A program made the translations under genes and the position numbers. Below the pieces are notes generated by a model. The model saw nothing but the letters and a program-made list of their open reading frames with translations, was not told the DNA's origin and made no database searches. A DNA stretch of 64,000 nucleotides from Candidatus Nomurabacteria bacterium (GTDB lineage: Bacteria; Patescibacteriota; Minisyncoccia; Phycocordibacterales; UBA918). Positions within the stretch are counted from its first letter, which is position 1. Each line of letters starts with the position of its first letter. The stretch covers positions 36,534-100,533 of the forward strand of contig JACKGG010000003.1 of the NCBI GenBank assembly GCA_020632035.1, written 5' to 3'. Below, in pieces: positions 1,039 through 56,358 of this stretch.

Positions 1039-3627
1039 CTATTCCTTAAATGTATCACTAACCTCTTTTTCAAAGTTTTTAATGAGGTCATCTTGAGAAG
1101 ACTTGTAAGTTTTTTCCTCATCTTTTTCTTTACCAGAATTAGATTGGGCCCCCTTAGATTTAGTAGTTGATTTTTTTATATTATCGACACTCTCACCAAA
1201 GAAAATCTTATGTCCTTGTTCGTTTTGTAGGTATTCAATATTTGCCTTTGCGCGAGCGATAGCTTTTTGGCTATAATTCCCATCTTCGACTTTTTCCTCA
1301 GCAATAATTTTCCATTTTTCAAGTAATTCATTTCTACTTGACTTGGACATTTTAGTCATTGCTCTATCTTCCGCAGCAAAAGTTGTGATCCAATCGGTAT
1401 CAAGATATTGTGCAAGTTTGTAGTCTTCAGCCTTAATCGCATCAGGATGAAGTTGCGTAGCGATATTTTTCCCACTCTTAAATGAGCCCTTAGTAACATA
1501 TTTTTTGCTTACATCGTCGTATTCATTAACAATCTTGTATAGCATTCGAGCGGAATCATTGAGATTTATAACTCCTTCTTCATCAAGTTTTTCTGGAAGT
1601 TCTTTATCTTTAGGTATTTTCTTAACATTTTCATTAAGTGCTCGCTTGTGTGTATCAAGAAAACTTTCGTAGAAAGTGTCACTCATCATACCTATACGTT
1701 TAATCTCAGTCATTTGTTGGTTGACAAGTAGGCCCGCATTTTTAACAGCCCAGTCAACACCAAGAACGTCGATTTGCTTGGCAGTGAGTTTTTTCAGTTG
1801 GTCATTAAGTATGATTTGTATTTTATTACCCGCTGCATCAATCTTGTCTGTTACTCGCGTAAAGCTTGATTTGATACTCTCTTGCATAAGCGTCTCCATC
1901 TTGTCACGAACAACCTTATCGATATCTTCATCCTTTTGTAACGCTTCGTATTTACTCATTTCCATAAACGGAACCATAGCATACTTGATTTGGTCAGGCA
2001 TGTTCTTGATTTCAGATGTATTAGTGTCCTTCACCGCCTTCATTGCTAGGGTTACTTCCGTTGCAAGTTGGTCAGTTAAAGCAACTTTCTCTACATCTGT
2101 CATGTTTTCAAATTGTCCTTCTATAATGTTGCCTTCTTCATCCATATATTTGTTATTTGCGTAGGCTTCCTGACGCTTGAGGGCAACAGCTCCTGCAGCA
2201 ATCTGGTTTCTTCGTTCGGCCCGAAGTAAGGTGTGTTGTTTTTGGTAAAGATCACCCTCCTCATCACGCTCGAAGCCCATCTTGTTGCCTTCTAGGGCTG
2301 GTGTCAAACGACCAAGTACCTGGTCTTGAACTACATTAGTACGGGCAATTCTTCCAATCATGTTACTAAATGAGTCTGGTGGTGCATTAGGGTCAATTTT
2401 TTGTTGTGCTTTCAGGGTGGCGTATTTAATATTCTGACCAACCGAAGACACAGCTGATCGGGCACCTAAACGTAGAGGATACGATACCCCAAGAGCCGCC
2501 TGCTTCGCTCCCCCCACTGCCCACCGCCTACCTGTGGCAGTCGCCTTCTTACCAACAGACATGACCATCGAGGCCCCATTGGCACCCATTTTATTTGCAA
2601 TGATAATGGAGGCAATTAGGAAAATAGAACCAAGAATAAATGGGGTAAAAGATCCGACAAAAGTATGGTTCACCCCGGAACCACCGTTTAAAAAAGCGTT
2701 GCCAATTGCAGCTGGTCCAGCTGTACTTCCGAGTACATTGGTGTAGTTTTGTACTATGCTGGCCGACAGGTACAACATAAGGATATAAACTGGCGCAAAG
2801 AAAGCCCGACCAAGAAAGCCCGACCAGTAGTCATCAGTATATTTTTGTAATTTTGGGAAAACCCAACCGATAAACATAAGGGGAGAAAGAACCAAATAGA
2901 TACAAAGCACAGCCGCTCTGATAATAAGCAGGAAACCACCAGCCGCGAACACAAATGTAGCAATCACTAGCATAATCATGGTGCCAAAGATGTACCCCCA
3001 CAATGGACCTTTTTTCTCTGCAAGCACAGTAATCTGTGACTCTCCGGTATCAGTCCCTCCACCCAGAATCGAGGTGAAACCAATCGCGTTGGCAAAAGTG
3101 TCTGAAACCAAAACGTACCCGACCGGCTGTTTCATCAATCCCACCTCCGGTTTTTCGTGGACAAAACCAGCCAAAGCTACCTCGCTAGCAATGATGTTGG
3201 TAAAATCTACTACAAACTTAGTGAAGTATAGACTAAAGTTCACCAAGATTGCTGCCATGATGAGGTGCACCAACCAACGCTTAGTGTTGGAGTCATCACT
3301 ATTGAGGATCATTTTGAAACCAATGTACACTAAACCGAATATAAAAGTGATGTTGAAGATATCTCTCACGCTGACCCAAGCTAGGTCGACTGCTGCCCCT
3401 AAACCACCAGAAGTATAAAGATCACCAAAACCAATCACGAAATCATTAATCCCTACATTGAGGAGTTTTCCAGCTAGTCCAGCAAAGAAGCCAAACACTC
3501 CCGTTACGATGTACCATACTACTCCCTCTATTCCATCTATATCAGCAAAAGTTAAAGAGGGTATTAGCGCTAACACCGCTGCCAGGACCAATATAATTTT
3601 TGTTGAATTATGGGAGGAAGTTCTCAT
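1039..3627 (-). CDS. large polytopic membrane protein, VirB6/TrbL/PrgH-like, with long charged coiled-coil C-terminal domain
   Basis: 862 aa. About 8 hydrophobic segments in the first ~330 aa, then a K/E-rich coiled-coil tail. Immediately upstream of the PrgI-like gene. Confidence 0.5.
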   Translation of the reverse strand: MRTSSHNSTKIILVLAAVLALIPSLTFADIDGIEGVVWYIVTGVFGFFAGLAGKLLNVGINDFVIGFGDLYTSGGLGAAVDLAWVSVRDIFNITFIFGLVYIGFKMILNSDDSNTKRWLVHLIMAAILVNFSLYFTKFVVDFTNIIASEVALAGFVHEKPEVGLMKQPVGYVLVSDTFANAIGFTSILGGGTDTGESQITVLAEKKGPLWGYIFGTMIMLVIATFVFAAGGFLLIIRAAVLCIYLVLSPLMFIGWVFPKLQKYTDDYWSGFLGRAFFAPVYILMLYLSASIVQNYTNVLGSTAGPAAIGNAFLNGGSGVNHTFVGSFTPFILGSIFLIASIIIANKMGANGASMVMSVGKKATATGRRWAVGGAKQAALGVSYPLRLGARSAVSSVGQNIKYATLKAQQKIDPNAPPDSFSNMIGRIARTNVVQDQVLGRLTPALEGNKMGFERDEEGDLYQKQHTLLRAERRNQIAAGAVALKRQEAYANNKYMDEEGNIIEGQFENMTDVEKVALTDQLATEVTLAMKAVKDTNTSEIKNMPDQIKYAMVPFMEMSKYEALQKDEDIDKVVRDKMETLMQESIKSSFTRVTDKIDAAGNKIQIILNDQLKKLTAKQIDVLGVDWAVKNAGLLVNQQMTEIKRIGMMSDTFYESFLDTHKRALNENVKKIPKDKELPEKLDEEGVINLNDSARMLYKIVNEYDDVSKKYVTKGSFKSGKNIATQLHPDAIKAEDYKLAQYLDTDWITTFAAEDRAMTKMSKSSRNELLEKWKIIAEEKVEDGNYSQKAIARAKANIEYLQNEQGHKIFFGESVDNIKKSTTKSKGAQSNSGKEKDEEKTYKSSQDDLIKNFEKEVSDTFKE

Positions 3628-5605: not shown

Positions 5606-6400
5606 TTACTCAGGATAGAGATTTTTAGTTAATTCAAGCCATTTTTCAAGAGGAATATCCTCGGCCCGGATATTGGGCGGTAAATTAAGTGAAGAAAACA
5701 CCGTCTCAAGGTCTGGTCGAGGAAACTCACTACTTAAGTTCCCCAACAATTGTTTTCTTTTTTGGGCAAAACCAAGGTGAATAATGGTGAAAAACTGTTC
5801 ACTGGAGATTTTGGTTAGTTTCTTTCGACCAATATTATTCACCGCTACAATCGCAGAGTCTATTTTGGGTGGTGGGGTGAAGTGTCCTCTCTTGATTGTA
5901 CATATATATGTAGGGTCACCGAACACTTTTATTGAAAGAGAAAGTAACGATTCCTTTTTGTCGCGAGCAATTCGCTCAGCTACTTCTTTTTGAATAAGAA
6001 AAACTAACGTACTTGGCTGGCACTCAGTGTCTAAAAGACTGCGAAAGAGTAAGCCAGACAGATAATAAGGAATATTAGAAACAACTTTGTAGTCAAGCTT
6101 TGCAAGATTAAAATCAGCTGGGTTTAGTTTACGCGCATCGTGGTGGTGGAGGGTGAGTTGCTCGCGGGCGATTGCCCCAGGGAAAGAATCTCTAAGCGAA
6201 GCAATTGCCCGCCCATCGGCTTCTACAGCCACCACTTCTGCCCCCCGCTCCAACAGCTCCTGGGTGAGAATCCCTGTTCCTGGTCCAATCTCTAGTACCC
6301 TGTCCCCTTTTTGAATATCTCCAGCGTCACACATTTTCTTCGGCACGTAGTCGCTGTTGAGAAAATGCTGACCGAGGCTCTTTTTATGGATGAAATTCAT
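5606..6400 (-). CDS. rsmA: 16S rRNA (adenine1518/1519-N6)-dimethyltransferase
   Basis: 'SLGQHFL', 'VLEIGPGTGILT' SAM motif. 264 aa. Confidence 0.9.
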   Translation of the reverse strand: MNFIHKKSLGQHFLNSDYVPKKMCDAGDIQKGDRVLEIGPGTGILTQELLERGAEVVAVEADGRAIASLRDSFPGAIAREQLTLHHHDARKLNPADFNLAKLDYKVVSNIPYYLSGLLFRSLLDTECQPSTLVFLIQKEVAERIARDKKESLLSLSIKVFGDPTYICTIKRGHFTPPPKIDSAIVAVNNIGRKKLTKISSEQFFTIIHLGFAQKRKQLLGNLSSEFPRPDLETVFSSLNLPPNIRAEDIPLEKWLELTKNLYPE

Positions 6401-18666: not shown

Positions 18667-19578
18667 ATGAACCTAGTGGAACTGAAACGGCAATTTCTTG
18701 AGTACTTAGAAATCGAGCGGGGAAGAAGTGTGAAGACAGTTGAAAACTACGATCGTTACCTAGAACGCTTCTTCGAATTCGCTAAAGTTAAAGCGCCAAA
18801 AGATTTGACTGAGGAACAAATTAGAGAATTTCGTTTGTATCTCAATCGACAACCCGGTACAAAAGTTGGCGGTCGGATGGAGCCCATGAAACGTCGGACA
18901 CAGAATTATTACCTGATTGCCTTGAGGGTGTTTCTTAAGTTTCTCCGTAAGCGAGGGATTGAATCTCTAAATCCTGAAAGAATAGAATTGGCCAAAGTTC
19001 CTGGGCGTTCACTCGACCTCATCTCCCCCACCGAGCTAAAACGTCTTATGTCTGCGCCAAACACAAAAACTCTTGAAGGCAAAAGAGACAAGGCAATTCT
19101 GGAACTTTTCTTTTCAACCGGTTTGCGTATTTCTGAACTATGCGGACTTTCGATTGACGATGTAGATTTAACTCGTGATGAATTTTCAGTTCGAGGAAAA
19201 GGTGACAAAGTGCGAGTAGTATTTATTTCGGATGAAGCGCGCTCTTCCCTTCAGGATTATTTGAAACATCGTAAAGACATGGATGATGCACTTTTTGTTC
19301 GCTACGGACGAAAGGTAAATGACGGAGGAGATCTACGAATTTCACCAAGAGCCGTTCAAAGAATTCTTAAAAAATATGCGACGCAAGCTGGTATCACTCG
19401 TAAGGTTACTCCGCACGTTATTCGGCACAGCTTCGCAACTGACTTACTTAGTAATGGTGCTGACTTGAGAAGTGTGCAAGCGCTACTCGGTCACGCTAAC
19501 ATTGGAACGACTCAAGTTTATACTCACGTCACCGGCAAGCACTTAAGAGAAGTACATAAAAAATTTCACGGTAAGTAA
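18667..19578 (+). CDS. tyrosine site-specific recombinase XerC/XerD family
   Basis: 303 aa. 'RHSFATDLLSNGADLRSVQALLGHANIGTTQVYTHV' (R-H-R-Y catalytic C-terminus). Confidence 0.85.
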   Translation: MNLVELKRQFLEYLEIERGRSVKTVENYDRYLERFFEFAKVKAPKDLTEEQIREFRLYLNRQPGTKVGGRMEPMKRRTQNYYLIALRVFLKFLRKRGIESLNPERIELAKVPGRSLDLISPTELKRLMSAPNTKTLEGKRDKAILELFFSTGLRISELCGLSIDDVDLTRDEFSVRGKGDKVRVVFISDEARSSLQDYLKHRKDMDDALFVRYGRKVNDGGDLRISPRAVQRILKKYATQAGITRKVTPHVIRHSFATDLLSNGADLRSVQALLGHANIGTTQVYTHVTGKHLREVHKKFHGK

Positions 19579-20768: not shown

Positions 20769-23700
20769 TTATAATGCACTGTCAATATTTTTCATAATTC
20801 GGTCGGTTTCGGTCAGGGCGACAATTATCTTTTGATAGTGTTCAATATCTTCGTTGGTGAGCTGTCTGCCTTTTCGGTCTTTGAGCCATTTTTGGGCTGG
20901 CTGATAACCACCGATGTAGAAATTCCAAGCGACTTCTGGCACATCGCCAAAATACTGTTCTTTATTGATGTGTACTCTACCATCAGCAAAAGATACCTTG
21001 TCGACAGTGTCGTCACCCTCTTCTGGGAAGGAAGTAATATATTGACTGACTTTTGGTGATTTTAGTAAATGAATTTCACGCAGTTCTTTTCCGTACTTCA
21101 CTAATTTCCAAAAGGCGTCCTTGGTTTCTGGATATGGTACTCGAGGAAAATCAATTTTAAGAAATTCTTTATACTTTTCTCGGTAGCTTGGTGAATGTAG
21201 AACAGCATAAATATAATCAAGAATATCCTCGGGTGTCGTCGTTCCGACGACACCCTCAATCTCCCCAACAATCTTCTCGTCAAAGTTAGAAGTCTTTGTG
21301 CCGTCTTCGTTGAATATATATAAAGGATAGATCTGCTCTGCTCCCAACATTCCTGGCCTAGACCACGAACGTCTATCTATAATAGAATCAGAAACATAAC
21401 ATGGTGATGATTTTTCTTCTGACATTCCTCTTTTGGCTATAAAACCTATATTGTTAGTTAACATCTCCTTCATTACACTATAACGAGGTCTCCACCAAAG
21501 TCCTTGGCTATTTGGAGAATATAAAGTATGTCTTTTATCAAACGGTCGATAGAGTATCTCTACGCTATCTTGCATGGCATTATCAATATCTCTTTTCACT
21601 TGTTCAGATTTGTCCAGTTTTAAACCGTATACAGATGCAATTTCTTTCACTTCATTATTTTCAATAAACTGCTTTAAATCCGTAATATTTTTTGCCTCAA
21701 AGGCGACAATAAAATCATCTTTTCCAGATTCAATTCCAGATGTAGCTTTTTCAAAAACATTATTAACAGAGAAGCCTTTTTCGTATTCTCCTTGAGCGCC
21801 AAAATCCTTTGGAACAAAAAAATGATATGGTTCGACATTTTCTAATTTAGTCCATTTAACTTTTTCAAACGGGACAGAGTTCAATTGTTCAAATTTATCT
21901 TTTCGGAGTCCAAATAATTCTGAGTGGTGTATGGTTCCTAGGCCTTTTTTATCTTCATTTTTACGAACGAAAATATTGATTGACACACCCTGTTGAATAT
22001 TGAAAACATTTTCGTCTTTACTACCGTCTGGTGCAGTTTCTTTTTTCTTTGAGTTGCCATGCAGGTCGTAAATATAAATATCATCAAAAGTCTCGAGCAA
22101 GTGCTTGCGCATTTGTCGGTGAGTAATGCCGTCTATAAAAGAGTTGTTGGTAATCATCGCTACTACTCCAGACTTATTTTTTTCTACAAAGTGTTCAGCA
22201 AAACGAATAAATTTTATGTAGTCATCGTCAAGATTAATTTTCTTTTCGTTTAAATCTTTTTTGTAGACTTTTATTTGCTCTTGTATCCACTCGCCTTTAT
22301 TGGAGGAGCTGACACTATATGGAGGGTTGCCCACCACTACCATCACTTGCGTATCATTTTTTATTACTCCCGCTTCTTTGGATTCATTGGCTATGCTTTG
22401 AGCGAGGCCAAAAGCAATCGAGGCTTGATTGTCTTCTGATTTCTCTAGTGCATTTGTAAGGTAAATACCAAGACGTTCTAAAAAGTAGTGAAAACCAGTT
22501 TCTTTGAAGGCCAAACTAAGCTTGAGGTGAGCAATCGTGTATGGCGCCATCATCAACTCAAAGCCATGAAGTCGAGGTAAAAGTTCTCGGTGCACGTAGG
22601 TAGTCCAGCGACCTTTTTGCTTTTGCTTTAAGATTCGTTCGTAGATAACATAAATAACTCGACTGATAAAAGTACCAGTACCAACAGCTGGGTCGAGGAT
22701 TTGAACTTTGTGTGTGCCGTCTGGTAGCTTGGTTGTGTCGGCCAAGCCCTGCCCTAATCCAAAGTCTTTTTCCAAGATTTTATCAACCGCCCGAACGATG
22801 AAATTTACCACTGGTAGTGGAGTGTAGTAGGCGCCCATTTTCTTTCTTAGGTCTGGGTCGTACTCTTTGAGGAAGTCTTCGTAGAAGTGAATAATTGGAT
22901 CAGCTTCACCCATGTATTCCTCAACTAATTTTTTGGTATCGGCGTGCAAAAAAACTTCACATAGTTCATCTACAATATAGCGAAGTCGTTTATCAAACGT
23001 CGGCCCTGCTATGTGGTCGAAAAAATGTCTAAGGAACGGATTGGAGGCCGGCACCAAATCGCGTGCTTCTTGTCGAGAGAAATTTTGCAATGAGTCATCA
23101 TGATAACGAGCGACAAAAAGGCCGTAGACTAATGTCTGAGCATACATATCGGCAAAAGTTTCATCGGTAAGGTCGTGAACAAGCATTTGCTTTAAGGTAT
23201 CGTAGACATGCAACAGCTCACTGTTTTTGCTAGATTCAACTGAGATAAATTGTTTTAGGTTGTCACGAATACGCCTTCCTTTACCGCCCATAATCTTGGC
23301 CAAGTGAGAACCTCTTTTGATGGGTTCTTTTTGTTCAACCACAAAGTCGCGGACAGTACGTTCAAGGGTTTCATTTTGACCGAGGCAAGGGATTATAGTT
23401 TTCCCTTTCGAGTCTAGAGATGCTAGCGAAATTGGCTCATTGTATTTTTGTCCGTTTCGGAAAAAACGAAACTCAACATAGTCACTTATTATGAGATTTG
23501 TATAACCAAAATAACGCTCTGCTTGTTCTGATGCTTCGATCTTATCCAAATTTTCACCAACTTTTTTTACTTCTATATATAAAAGAGGAACTTGGTTTTT
23601 TAAGATAATAAAATCTGGTTTGTTCCCGTCGATAGTGCGTTGGTCGTGTTGGATATGGTAATTTTGTTCGGCTGGGAAAATAGTCGCCAGATAATTTTGA

Positions 23701-23786
23701 AAAGCTGTGCGGTAGGACATCTCGGAGCTGTTTTCATCGGAAAGATATTTTGAGATTTCGTGCAGATATTCGGTGGCTGGATTCAT
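20769..23786 (-). CDS. Type IIG/IIL restriction-modification fusion enzyme (MmeI-like: N-terminal PD-(D/E)xK nuclease + N6-adenine MTase + TRD)
   Basis: 1005 aa. N-terminal 'NKPDFIIL...LYIEVKK' (D...ExK). 'VVVGNPPYSVSS' (NPPY motif IV). SAM-binding 'DPAVGTGTF'. Confidence 0.75.
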   Translation of the reverse strand: MNPATEYLHEISKYLSDENSSEMSYRTAFQNYLATIFPAEQNYHIQHDQRTIDGNKPDFIILKNQVPLLYIEVKKVGENLDKIEASEQAERYFGYTNLIISDYVEFRFFRNGQKYNEPISLASLDSKGKTIIPCLGQNETLERTVRDFVVEQKEPIKRGSHLAKIMGGKGRRIRDNLKQFISVESSKNSELLHVYDTLKQMLVHDLTDETFADMYAQTLVYGLFVARYHDDSLQNFSRQEARDLVPASNPFLRHFFDHIAGPTFDKRLRYIVDELCEVFLHADTKKLVEEYMGEADPIIHFYEDFLKEYDPDLRKKMGAYYTPLPVVNFIVRAVDKILEKDFGLGQGLADTTKLPDGTHKVQILDPAVGTGTFISRVIYVIYERILKQKQKGRWTTYVHRELLPRLHGFELMMAPYTIAHLKLSLAFKETGFHYFLERLGIYLTNALEKSEDNQASIAFGLAQSIANESKEAGVIKNDTQVMVVVGNPPYSVSSSNKGEWIQEQIKVYKKDLNEKKINLDDDYIKFIRFAEHFVEKNKSGVVAMITNNSFIDGITHRQMRKHLLETFDDIYIYDLHGNSKKKETAPDGSKDENVFNIQQGVSINIFVRKNEDKKGLGTIHHSELFGLRKDKFEQLNSVPFEKVKWTKLENVEPYHFFVPKDFGAQGEYEKGFSVNNVFEKATSGIESGKDDFIVAFEAKNITDLKQFIENNEVKEIASVYGLKLDKSEQVKRDIDNAMQDSVEILYRPFDKRHTLYSPNSQGLWWRPRYSVMKEMLTNNIGFIAKRGMSEEKSSPCYVSDSIIDRRSWSRPGMLGAEQIYPLYIFNEDGTKTSNFDEKIVGEIEGVVGTTTPEDILDYIYAVLHSPSYREKYKEFLKIDFPRVPYPETKDAFWKLVKYGKELREIHLLKSPKVSQYITSFPEEGDDTVDKVSFADGRVHINKEQYFGDVPEVAWNFYIGGYQPAQKWLKDRKGRQLTNEDIEHYQKIIVALTETDRIMKNIDSAL

Positions 23787-28956: not shown

Positions 28957-29125
28957 ATATTTTTGTTTGCTTTATTTTTAACTACAAAACTTCACTGCGC
29001 TTTCTCGTCTTCTCAAACTTCAAGAGGAGCTTCGTTTCGTACCAGCATTAAAGCATATCTCTAACTAAATACAAGTAGTTTGTTAAAAATGTATGACTTA
29101 AGGCACCTCGGCGCCTTTCCATGTT

Positions 29126-37976: not shown

Positions 37977-38732
37977 CTACTTGCTAAGTAAAATATTTAA
38001 GTCTTTTAAGCCCACTTCCCCATCTAAATTAAAATCGTACCTAGGATCATAGCCCGCCATGTTTAACATGAAAATACTTATATCAACCAGGTTCTGCTCA
38101 CCATCCCCATTTAAATCTGTGTTAGGTACTTCTTTCGCTACTCTGTAGCTAGTTATTTGGTTACGCTGTGTGCCTGCTGGAACATTTGCTTGAGTATTAG
38201 TAATGGTAAAGATTGCGTCGTTAGTAGCCGCTAGTTCAACATCGGTACCCAAGCCGTCGTGGAGCAGTATACGGGGATTATTGATCGAGATAACTCCCTT
38301 TCCGGTGTTAATGGTTTCAAAAGTGACTCTTATTAAAGTATCAATGCCTTTAAATCCGCCTGTTTTTGTAGTACCGCCACCAAAGGTCAAAGTTCCTTCA
38401 CCATTGCTATACCACGGCAACTCAGCCCATAAGTCTGCGATTGAGGTGTTGTAGTCAATCAATTTAATTCTTAAAACAGTTGGATCAAAACGGAGCTCAC
38501 CAGCAAAAACATTAACTGGAGTTTTGGAGTCAACGACAATTTCAATATCAAAACTTTTATTTATTTCTACCACAGCATCAAGTGGCTCGATACGCATTTC
38601 AGAGACGGTAATCCTGTTAAGAGGTATCGTAGAAACCCCAAAAATAGCAATCAAAGCAATAAAAGCGCTTGCCAGCAACTGAACTGGAGCCACTGTTCCC
38701 TTCAGAAACTTTTTATTAGTATTTTTAAACAC
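37977..38732 (-). CDS. membrane-anchored cohesin-like domain protein with C-terminal dockerin-type repeats
   Basis: 251 aa. N-terminal TM. C-terminal duplicated Ca-binding 'DLNGDGEQN...DFNLDGEVG' dockerin repeats. Confidence 0.6.
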   Translation of the reverse strand: MFKNTNKKFLKGTVAPVQLLASAFIALIAIFGVSTIPLNRITVSEMRIEPLDAVVEINKSFDIEIVVDSKTPVNVFAGELRFDPTVLRIKLIDYNTSIADLWAELPWYSNGEGTLTFGGGTTKTGGFKGIDTLIRVTFETINTGKGVISINNPRILLHDGLGTDVELAATNDAIFTITNTQANVPAGTQRNQITSYRVAKEVPNTDLNGDGEQNLVDISIFMLNMAGYDPRYDFNLDGEVGLKDLNILLSK

Positions 38733-38826
38733 TTAAGTATTATACCGTGATACATGACTCGTTTACGACAAATGTATAACTTCTGTATAAACTAAGAACA
38801 AGAACACAACAACCAACATGAGTAAC

Positions 38827-38878
38827 TGTGGATAACCAGGTGGATAGGTGGATAAAGGACAATCCACAGGGATAAAGT
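38827..38878. promoter_or_regulatory. cluster of DnaA-box-like 9-mers (TGTGGATAA perfect; GGTGGATAG; GGTGGATAA; AATCCACAG) followed by an AT-rich stretch - candidate oriC/DnaA-regulated region
   Basis: Seen in sequence, in the divergent intergenic region 38733-39007. Confidence 0.4.
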
Positions 38879-38930
38879 AAATGTGTCCTTTATAAAATAG
38901 TGCTATAATTAAGCCTGCTTTCACCTACGC

Positions 38931-38961
38931 TTGACAATAAGTTTCACGTGAAACATATAAT
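38931..38961 (+). promoter_or_regulatory. promoter (TTGACA ... TATAAT) whose spacer is a 14-bp perfect palindrome GTTTCACGTGAAAC (operator-like)
   Basis: ttgacaataaGTTTCACGTGAAACatataat. CACGTGAAAC-like half-sites recur at 39205, 39345 and 39447. Confidence 0.45.
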
Positions 38962-39007
38962 GACGTTACACATGAAACAGACAGAGAAAAAAGGTAAAAA
39001 GAATCAA

Positions 39008-39397
39008 ATGGGAGCTTATGGTGAAGAAATTGCTGTAAAGTACTTAAAAAGGAAAGGTTTTGCGATTTTAGGAGTAAATTACTTCAAAAAATGGGGAGAA
39101 ATAGACATCGTTGCACGTGAAACTGTTAAAAATAAGCAAAAGATAAGGTTTGTAGAGGTTAAGACTGTTTCATATGAAACAAAACGCCATTTGGAGCAAC
39201 CTATTTCACGTGGAACTTGGCGTCCAGAGGAAAATGTTCACTACGCCAAGATCCAAAGACTTAATCGAGCTATAGAGAGTTGGATTATGGAAAATAATTA
39301 CGACGGAGAGTGGGAAATTGACGTTATTGCCGTTAGAATAGTTCCACGTGAAAAATATGCGACAGTTAAGTATTTGCAAAATGTTATATTTGATTAA
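39008..39397 (+). CDS. YraN/UPF0102-family putative endonuclease
   Basis: 'GEEIAVKYLKRKGFAILGVNY...GEIDIVARE'. The listed ORF starts at 38948, but that ATG lies inside the promoter/operator, so start 39008 (129 aa) is preferred. Confidence 0.6.
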   Translation: MGAYGEEIAVKYLKRKGFAILGVNYFKKWGEIDIVARETVKNKQKIRFVEVKTVSYETKRHLEQPISRGTWRPEENVHYAKIQRLNRAIESWIMENNYDGEWEIDVIAVRIVPREKYATVKYLQNVIFD

Positions 39398-39622
39398 ATA
39401 AGAGTATTTCCGAAGTTTCATGTGTAACAGTAGGGAAGTGTGCCACGTGAAACATTATAATTAATCTTGTGTGGTGTTTAAATAAAACAAAAGCTTCTCG
39501 ATAGCATCGAGAAGCTTTTGTTTTTGACAGAGGCTAAGAATTAGCTAGTATCACATCTTTTCTAAGTGCCAACAAACTTTTGGCTTGTTGATAAATTCTT
39601 TCAATTTCCATTTCGAGCTACG

Positions 39623-55932: not shown

Positions 55933-56358
55933 TCATTGCTCTCCTGCTTTTGTGGGAGAGTTTTGTTTTTCTACTTGTCCTAGCCATCCGCCTAGCATTT
56001 TACCGATTTCATATAGCGGAACGGATAGGCGTTCGTATTTGCCTGTATCTAGTGAACGAGTATCCCAGAGAATGTTAAGCAATAGCTTGATCGTATCAAG
56101 CTTGCGAATGGCAGTTCGCAGGTAGATGACTTTGTCGTTTTTCCTTACAAAGCTGGCACTTGCCACCATTTCCAAAAGTTCAATTAAGAGTTCATCAATT
56201 CTTCTAGCTAGTGTATATCTATGTGGCTTAGGAATTAGGTGATAGATGCTGTGCCAAAAGATGTATACAGAACGTGCCTTTTGCAACACTGGGACTAAAC
56301 TTGCTATGAATGTCTCGGGGGGGGGTAGACTTGTTGTTATGCATAGAAAAAATGACAA
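55933..56358 (-). CDS. avd: Avd-like accessory variability determinant (four-helix-bundle / 'S23 IVS' family)
   Basis: 'IFWHSIYHL...KPHRYTLARRIDELLIELLEMVASA...LYEIGKMLGGWL' matches the four-helix-bundle protein pattern. The listed start is TTG 56358, so the start is uncertain. Opposite strand to the RT. Confidence 0.6.
   Translation of the reverse strand: MSFFLCITTSLPPPETFIASLVPVLQKARSVYIFWHSIYHLIPKPHRYTLARRIDELLIELLEMVASASFVRKNDKVIYLRTAIRKLDTIKLLLNILWDTRSLDTGKYERLSVPLYEIGKMLGGWLGQVEKQNSPTKAGEQ

Follow-up and report, generated by a model that had tools for sequence, protein, structure and literature searches.

Predicted DnaA sites at the yraN promoter border a parS array in the origin domain of a Nomurabacteria chromosome

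Does a tight group of DnaA-box-like sequences at a switch of gene orientation mark the place where a chromosome starts to replicate, or does it serve the promoter of the gene beside it? This question is raised by a stretch of 64,000 nucleotides from Candidatus Nomurabacteria bacterium (contig JACKGG010000003.1 of assembly GCA_020632035.1, positions 36,534 to 100,533; hereafter the window), in which a cluster of such boxes lies upstream of yraN. An earlier note on this DNA proposed the cluster as a candidate replication origin (oriC) and named a DnaA-regulated yraN promoter as the alternative. The host group, the Paceibacteria (Patescibacteria, also known as Candidate Phyla Radiation, CPR), comprises uncultured bacteria with genomes of about 1 Mb, and its chromosome biology is essentially unstudied. 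We found that the alternative is the best-supported explanation. With a probability of roughly 55%, in our estimate, the boxes make up a conserved operator for DnaA at the yraN promoter, bordering a centromere inside the origin domain; binding of the boxes by DnaA and regulation of the promoter are what we infer from its sequence. The cluster is very probably not the chromosomal origin, and synteny would place the canonical oriC around dnaA, about 48 kb to the left. The orientation and coordinates of the window are used throughout, and the box search and strand statistics cover its full 64 kb.

The DnaA-box cluster and its counterparts at other promoters

The cluster sits in the intergenic region 38733-38971. 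Box 1 (38827-38835, minus strand) reads TGTGGATAA on the plus strand and TTATCCACA on the minus strand, without a mismatch. Box 2 (38839-38847, minus strand; GGTGGATAG on the plus strand) has two mismatches, and box 3 (38847-38855, minus strand; GGTGGATAA on the plus strand), with one mismatch, shares 1 bp with box 2 and is joined to an invariant AAGGACA. The inverted box 4 (38860-38868, plus strand; CAATCCACA, two mismatches) is shared by the closest relatives only. The earlier description of four DnaA-box-like 9-mers, one perfect and one inverted, is thus borne out (38827-38868). An oriC should hold at least three clustered boxes, and here four, with 0, 2, 1 and 2 mismatches, lie within 42 bp. 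The plus-strand 7-mer GTGGATA occurs three times in the window, every time here (38828, 38840 and 38848). As a null model we used 1000 first-order Markov simulations of the window, 12 of which held at least four boxes with up to two mismatches within 45 bp. None of the 1000 gave such a cluster with a perfect box plus a second box at no more than one mismatch, which places the cluster beyond chance.

Using a YraN protein search with one genome per species, we collected 60 Patescibacteria loci (labelled Paceibacteria, Nomurabacteria or Kaiserbacteria; 35-79% identity). Nearly all of them carry two or three DnaA-box-like 9-mers in the same orientation, located 110-390 bp (mostly 120-180 bp) upstream of yraN, and the spacing from box 1 to box 3 is exactly 20 bp. 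The strict core TGKGGAWAA-N3-aGTGNAYAk-GTGKATAA, which begins with the clade consensus of boxes 1 and 2 in plus reading and is fused to the invariant AAGGACA, was counted over 61 Paceibacteria loci upstream of yraN and is present in 50. Across these 50 loci box 2 shows full degeneracy at its N position, with 0.28 bits against 1.5-2 bits at the neighbouring positions. We read this degeneracy as the signature of the DnaA-box consensus TTATNCACA; an operator for DnaA should contain at least two conserved sites that fit TTATNCACA and vary at N, and this is the pattern found.

On its 3' side the core is followed in relatives by a variable loop of 14-28 nt, an inverted arm TGTCCTTTA and an extended -10 element (TGnTATAAT). 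The window shows this second conserved motif as a 10-bp perfect inverted repeat (38852-38893), composed of ATAAAGGACA at 38852-38861 and TGTCCTTTAT at 38884-38893, ahead of an extended -10 that we read as TGcTATAAT (38901-38909, plus strand) and that is conserved in near relatives. The AT-rich stretch said to follow the boxes is real to a limited extent: 38880-38915 is only about 65-70% AT, and it holds this extended -10. A second promoter-like pair, TTGACA/TATAAT (38931-38961, plus strand), likewise a sequence reading, has a 19-nt spacer, was missed by a scan for 16-18-nt spacers, and encloses the first parS site described below. In all loci a TGnTATAAT or TATAAT-like element and then yraN come after the module, whatever gene lies upstream, so that the module accompanies yraN and its promoter whether its upstream neighbour is a tRNA, a terminator or another gene. 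There is no conservation 5' of box 1, and relatives have an intrinsic terminator hairpin or a tRNA 3' end there within 5-40 nt. The gene itself (38972-39397, plus strand) encodes a YraN-family nuclease-like protein (UPF0102) of 141 amino acids.

The conserved block does not appear to be a known RNA, since Rfam, including permissive searches of 38600-39100 and 32800-34000, returned nothing credible; at gathering thresholds over the whole window only four tRNAs were reported. A pseudoknot or hairpin was also considered for the block and rejected, as the CTGTGGA/TCCACAG pairing is missing in many relatives without compensating changes and the AAAGGACA/TGTCCTTT arms either do not vary or give way to direct repeats.

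What speaks most strongly for a DnaA operator in the yraN triad is that a promoter-proximal box architecture recurs elsewhere in the clade. Before dnaA, for which we sampled 80 further metagenome loci and three virB4-anchored loci containing the gene, the boxes form a tandem pair, TTATCCACA-G-TTTGTTCACA, upstream of a TTTACA-17-TATAAT promoter. A second module with a non-coding RNA (ncRNA) lies in the window at 33142-33586 (plus strand). It reads ATAAAGGACA-TTATCCCCA-TGTCCTTTAC and contains a -35-like TTTACC; its boxes, at 33142-33175, are bracketed by the same motif pair as the inverted repeat at 38852-38893. The module is found 3-9 kb left of yraN in at least 35 relatives, with the layout of a TGTCCTTTATAAAGGACA palindrome, a tandem TTATNCACA-G-TTATNCACA, TGTCC-TTTACA (the -35), TAAAGGACA and a -10, so that the ncRNA promoter combines two tandem DnaA boxes with TAAAGGACA repeats. 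The clade would thus have three promoter-type DnaA-box modules, at dnaA, the ncRNA and yraN, of which two share the partner motif ATAAAGGACA.

Might the repeats only resemble DnaA boxes and be bound by another factor? We consider this quite improbable. A candidate would be a response regulator or the neighbouring 222-aa protein (36855-37523, plus strand), which has an N-terminal helix-turn-helix (HTH) domain and an unassigned C-terminal domain. The conserved gene for this protein lies directly upstream of the module in 51 of the 60 species, so that the protein is also a candidate binder of ATAAAGGACA. In favour of such a factor, boxes 2 and 3 abut with their starts 8 bp apart, another base often stands in for the first T of the consensus, and the boxes always co-occur with the AAGGACA motif. 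Nevertheless, the motif is TGTGNATAA-like and degenerate at exactly the N position, the clade has the same 9-mers, often perfect, at its dnaA promoter and in its dnaA-dnaN spacer, and these genomes encode a DnaA with the Bac_DnaA_C domain.

Location of the chromosomal origin

The earlier note reported neither dnaA nor dnaN in the window, which agrees with our search of all open reading frames (ORFs) of at least 120 aa with Pfam and with a motif scan. Both genes are also absent within 10 kb on either side of yraN in 60 relatives, where a KDHSTV motif in one locus (L043) was a chance match and not DnaA. In Paceibacteria, dnaA, dnaN, rnpA, rpmH and ksgA were reported to lie usually within 20 genes of virB4, a type IV secretion system (T4SS) gene (PMC12102498). 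The left end of the window is a chromosomal T4SS cluster (prgI 537-968, trbL-like 1039-3627, ksgA 5606-6400). With prgI, trbL/virB6-like, traC-like and virB4 genes next to ksgA, its arrangement is that of the published clusters (PMC12102498); virB4 is reached on a contig of the same species that extends the left end of the window. Through virB4 homologues we arrived at loci of relatives whose contigs include yraN as well. In these loci uvrD, ksgA, the T4SS genes, virB4 and four ORFs share one strand; yidC, rnpA and rpmH follow on the opposite strand, and after them come a 230-520-bp spacer, dnaA, a spacer of about 330 bp and dnaN. In JACKGF010000001.1, yraN and dnaA are 47.5 kb apart, at 826.6 kb and about 779 kb. 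In JACKGC010000001.1 the distance is 46 kb, and in CP060229.1, a complete chromosome with yraN at about 302.8 kb and dnaA at about 346.6 kb, it is about 44 kb. The window matches this order from uvrD to the T4SS genes, and by synteny the dnaA-dnaN spacer of the source genome would lie about 9.0 kb left of window position 1 and about 47.8 kb from box 1.

In the relatives, the spacers on both sides of dnaA have the features of an origin. The 250 bp before dnaA (rpmH-dnaA spacer) contain 2.25 DnaA boxes per locus and the dnaA-dnaN spacer 4.5 per locus, compared with a background of 0.31 per 250 bp, and a high density is found only in these dnaA-flanking spacers. Directly before dnaN there is a conserved TTTTGCACA-CTTCCACA-CCC(C)-CTA ATA ATA, after which the sequence becomes AT-rich. 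In the published basal unwinding system (BUS), tandem boxes are followed by a GC spacer of some 4 bp and by three or more trios; these have a central A on the complementary strand, and the proximal one is 3'-GAT-5' (PMC8287927). A trio 5'-CACCTACTACTATTACTACTATGA-3' has been described in C. difficile (PMC7561715). The core next to dnaN fits the BUS pattern and has the same polarity as 5'-CACCTACTACTATTACTACTATGA-3'. Moreover, the skew at four-fold degenerate sites is -0.28 and -0.16 in two 1-kb bins over dnaA and +0.15 in dnaN, so that its sign flips between the two genes. Once orientation is corrected for, skew values of -0.05 to -0.17 on the left of the dnaA-dnaN spacer give way to +0.12 to +0.27 beyond it, and the minimum of the pooled raw cumulative GC skew is also located at dnaA-dnaN. 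From these relatives we place the oriC of the clade around dnaA, as a Firmicute-like, bipartite origin with a BUS-like core. Firmicute-type origins with a BUS and rpmH-dnaA and dnaA-dnaN spacers (PMC8287927, PMC7561715) share their box consensus with the yraN cluster, and the window has a formal run of NAN triplets there. They differ in that the BUS-like element of the clade is at dnaA-dnaN, whereas the yraN cluster shows no conserved trios, GC spacer or recognisable DNA unwinding element (DUE), no skew sign switch and no linkage to dnaA.

That the cluster upstream of yraN is the single chromosomal oriC, as was first proposed, is now very improbable and already largely refuted. The strand counts on which the proposal leaned are largely sound. 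Left of the site the coding sequence is indeed about 87% minus (27.8 kb vs 4.1 kb), and the plus bias on the right, which later becomes mixed, is real, 39.9-46.1 kb being all plus. The minus bias of 10.9-31.7 kb likewise stands, although this run is not uninterrupted, as a Xer recombinase is encoded on the plus strand at 18667-19578. The cluster further coincides with a local minimum of the raw GC skew at the orientation switch, and parS sites are usually near the origin. Transcription diverging from the site, taken as a hallmark of oriC, is not conserved. The gene on the left, encoding 251 aa (37977-38732, minus strand; between tRNA-Gly and the boxes), is present in only three loci and is an insertion, as it adjoins two identical copies of the tRNA-Gly 3' end; the divergence is therefore specific to this lineage. 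The raw cumulative minimum itself does fall at 35-38 kb of the window, but gene orientation accounts for it: a per-gene regression in the window gave an effect of 0.086 +/- 0.012 for orientation and of 0.007 +/- 0.011 for the side of the cluster, and the true switch is at dnaA-dnaN. Origin finders based on raw GC skew or box clusters can be misled here since gene orientation puts a local minimum at yraN. According to the note itself, a skew minimum and a dnaA-linked box cluster elsewhere on the chromosome would speak against an origin here, and in relatives the box-dense, BUS-bearing dnaA-dnaN spacer with its true skew switch lies 44-48 kb away. In addition, the skew does not change sign at yraN, and the side on which unwinding would be expected is occupied in relatives by terminator hairpins and tRNA 3' ends. 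What survives of the proposal are conserved and, as far as can be judged, genuine DnaA-type sites in an origin-proximal domain.

The strand composition at yraN has a feature of its own. In the pooled relatives, the four-fold GC skew in plus-strand coordinates is -0.111 for plus and +0.110 for minus genes on the left, and +0.071 for plus and +0.282 for minus genes on the right. From these values the effect of orientation is -0.108 on either side, and the strand term amounts to 0.00 left and +0.18 right of the boxes. The window alone follows the same pattern (-0.01 left, +0.11 right). In 1-kb bins over about 40 species, a step from -0.07 to +0.16 falls exactly at the box element. An oriC would be expected to show a switch of sign; with no reversal at yraN, the data do not support a bidirectional origin. 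Midway between dnaA and yraN the strand term is about 0.17, with the sign expected for forks from dnaA-dnaN. A zone of zero skew of about 10 kb (window ~29000-38800) ends exactly at the boxes and parS sites, and the skew is normal on both of its outer sides. All eight four-fold codon families shift in the same direction, which makes a codon bias due to expression level unlikely for the right flank; that idea is further weakened by a presumably low-expression right-flank gene for a major facilitator superfamily (MFS) transporter, which is shifted, while left-flank PNPase and ClpB-like genes are not. The view that the left flank is a variable or horizontally acquired island was rejected, because synteny is kept on both sides and 'other' genes also have zero skew.

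These observations leave some room for an auxiliary DnaA-dependent initiation site at the centromere, which would fire in a fraction, roughly half, of the cycles, close in time to the dnaA-dnaN oriC, and whose leftward forks would meet the rightward oriC forks within about 10-20 kb. We regard such a site as improbable. It would fit the skew sawtooth, i.e. about +0.17 in the middle of the interval, 0.00 in the last 10 kb, -0.07 in the last 2 kb and then +0.16 to +0.21 on the right, and the zero skew over the last 10 kb was found independently in conserved gene families and in unrelated genes, with the same pattern in the window. Moreover, nearly every gene of the 44-48-kb dnaA-yraN interval points towards dnaA-dnaN, and this is kept across species (window 1-38800; L072, L074, L076, L158 and L159), so that forks from oriC meet these genes head-on and hypothetical forks from yraN would run co-directionally with them. 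The interval contains the T4SS genes, ksgA, uvrD, comM, pnp, the S15 gene, a clpB-like gene and cca. On the side predicted by the polarity of the boxes, the window also has 12 consecutive NAN triplets, starting 1 bp from box 1.

Several findings argue against such an auxiliary site. The skew lacks a sign reversal. The NAN run is in lineage-specific DNA, has no GC spacer, and only 2 of its 12 triplets fit [G/A]A[T/A]. A conserved BUS should recur across species, but relatives have NAN runs of only one to six triplets, and GC-rich terminator hairpins or tRNA ends abut box 1. No strongly AT-rich conserved element is apparent nearby, the 80-nt flanks being 61% AT upstream and 71% downstream (the promoter tract) of the boxes in a genome of about 59%. 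There are just three or four boxes, and natural dual origins are essentially undocumented in bacteria. Dual chromosomal origins have been predicted in Halomonadaceae (bioRxiv 10.1101/2025.08.05.668638), which resemble the present case in having two DnaA-box regions per chromosome, one linked to dnaA and one not, and compositional hints. In our case, by contrast, boxes are few at the second site and a DUE is not apparent there, only 48 kb separate the two sites, and the skew forms a sawtooth instead of a sign switch. It is this sawtooth at yraN that gives auxiliary initiation what probability it has. If the zero-skew zone did reflect initiation, it would be a rare natural case of two initiation sites on a bacterial chromosome, and the sawtooth, the step at the boxes in about 40 species and the head-on orientation of the interval genes relative to oriC would all be accounted for. 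The objections listed here hold equally for a single oriC at yraN.

The parS array and the proposed operator

The CACGTG palindromes in and around yraN had gone unrecognised as a parS array when the locus was first read. The palindrome GTTTCACGTGAAAC between the promoter elements, as well as similar ones inside and after yraN, fits the chromosomal parS consensus TGTTNCACGTGAAACA (PMC7022226). Eight sites, each with one to three mismatches, lie within 515 bp of the window (38940-39454): 38940-55, 38964-79 (overlapping the yraN ATG), 39109-24, 39166-81, 39202-17, 39340-55, 39414-29 and 39439-54, four of them in the coding sequence. The array has 17 parS strand-matches where 2.4 are expected, and none of 100 shuffles reached this number. 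In relatives, parS sites amount to 7.5 per kb from -250 to +550 of the yraN start and to 0.12 per kb elsewhere, i.e. an enrichment of about 60-fold, and four sites are found at fixed offsets in the gene. The codons inside parS (GTT, TCA, CGT and GAA) are 91-100% fixed, compared with 36-60% for equally conserved residues outside. Synonymous positions at these sites are thus frozen across species whose YraN proteins are only 50-79% identical, which argues for selection on the DNA itself. We predict that the palindromes are canonical parS sites under selection at the DNA level, and yraN would be a clear case of a protein-coding gene that doubles as a centromere.

The array lies 44-48 kb from dnaA on chromosomes of about 1 Mb, as expected of an origin-proximal centromere. 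No parS site was found near dnaA in 1.08 Mb of dnaA-anchored loci, nor in the virB4 and pnp loci, and neither a ParB box-II nor a ParA Walker motif is present in the window or in any relative locus examined. Known ParB-parS centromeres (PMC7022226) share with this array the 16-bp palindromes, here matching at 13-15 of 15 specified positions, and the presence of several copies, here within about 5% of the chromosome from oriC. They differ from it in that the present array is extremely compact (6-9 sites in about 0.5-0.8 kb), has four sites at fixed codons of a conserved coding gene, is not adjacent to parAB and has a DnaA-box triad at its border.

In the DnaA operator that we favour, three tandem boxes, joined by an inverted fourth in close relatives, would be fused to the AAGGACA/TGTCCTT repeat, at which a putative partner may act, about 50-85 bp upstream of the extended -10, and the transcript would cross two parS sites on its way into yraN. 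DnaA may oligomerise cooperatively on the close-set boxes and thereby modulate the yraN promoter, up or down. Such modulation would couple the expression of yraN, as well as transcription into the ParB-parS complex, to the state of replication initiation, and the bound DnaA complex could also mark the left edge of the parS array. Four points weigh against this operator. Boxes 2 and 3, with their starts 8 bp apart, overlap by 1 bp, which is unusual for simultaneous occupancy by DnaA. At the dnaA and ncRNA promoters the boxes point the other way from those at yraN. From one relative to another, the gap between boxes and -10 changes by 14-28 nt. Lastly, a purely transcriptional role does not explain the sharp step of the orientation-corrected skew from about 0 to +0.18 at the boxes.

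Control of the promoter might also be secondary or absent. In analogy to the DnaA-box clusters of B. subtilis or to datA and DARS of E. coli, the cluster could hold or process DnaA as a titration or cell-cycle control locus, or form a centromere boundary that blocks the leftward sliding of ParB, and we consider this unlikely, although it is the most serious competitor of the operator. In every case the triad borders the parS array on the left, also in loci whose leader is lengthened by extra parS sites (L039, L041, L042 and L049). Its location in the origin domain, 44-48 kb from oriC, and the variable spacing to the -10 would fit as well, and cross-talk between ParA/ParB and DnaA is known in B. 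subtilis (PMC7022226). On the other hand, there are just three or four boxes, a promoter is always adjacent, and the evidence gathered here speaks equally for titration and for regulation.

The datA and DARS1/2 loci of E. coli are small non-origin DnaA-box clusters of defined geometry that act on DnaA and not on a gene. The present cluster differs from them: we recognised no IHF-like or Fis sites and no DARS-type arrangement of boxes I-III, the cluster is linked to a promoter, and it belongs to another phylum.

For the DnaA operator there is a published precedent in P. aeruginosa, where the 'oriCII' DnaA boxes are reported to regulate gidAB-parAB (PMC13438810). The DnaA-box clusters (DBCs) of B. 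subtilis (sda, ywlC and yydA), dnaA autoregulation and 'oriCII' of P. aeruginosa have in common with the yraN module a few tandem boxes just upstream of an ori-proximal promoter, a likeness by which they could be mistaken for an origin, and a position next to partition functions. The yraN module is set apart by its new target, the fused second repeat ATAAAGGACA/TGTCCTTTAT, the overlap of boxes 2 and 3 and a transcript predicted to run through parS. Our literature searches gave no report that links YraN to DnaA, and none on parS sites in Patescibacteria/CPR. Each kind of element has been described before, and their combination, i.e. parS sites in a conserved coding sequence with a DnaA triad and a partner motif at the border, appears to be undescribed. 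Taken together, our data would give a concrete map of the origin domain for Paceibacteria, with a bipartite oriC that has a BUS-like core, a single ultra-compact parS centromere in yraN about 48 kb away, and a small, DnaA regulon-like set of modules at dnaA, the structured ncRNA and yraN with ATAAAGGACA as a putative co-factor motif.

The ncRNA and other features of the window

The ncRNA transcribed from the second module (33206-33586; promoter 33142-33205) has a length of about 380 nt in the window and 300-440 nt in relatives. Compensatory changes are seen for 25 of its 32 predicted base pairs, and it ends in a long covarying hairpin. Its 5' end is AGGCCCAGAAAGGGCGAGC, and it has the conserved loops CCCCUUAAAGAGAUC and AUUACCUCCAA, the latter resembling an anti-Shine-Dalgarno sequence. 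No Rfam family matched 33206-33586. The same 1-kb non-coding gap may hold a second small RNA gene (33590-33890, plus strand). A consensus promoter, made up of TTGACA at 33599 and TATAAT near 33622, would start it, and a hairpin at 33860-33887 would serve as its terminator. A recurrent inversion of the segment between the two box modules was considered and rejected, as strand and order are the same in 38-51 loci.

The 3' end of tRNA-Gly (37528-37599, plus strand) has been copied, together with its flank, as two 50-mers of 100% identity (37768-37817 and 37916-37965). These copies look like attachment-site (att-like) scars left by small integrated elements. In four assemblies, contigs of the same species stop at 37.62-37.94 kb, at the tRNA-Gly copies.

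Two further genes of the window are missing from the relatives. A type ISP restriction-modification enzyme of 1005 aa (20769-23786, minus strand) is absent from all 60 and adjoins the conserved Xer recombinase; this region is probably a strain-specific defence island. The other is a reverse transcriptase of 367 aa (56246-57349, plus strand). It has its best match to the reverse transcriptase/maturase of group II introns, at 135 bits against a cutoff of 300, and it also shows weak matches to Drt and retron families.

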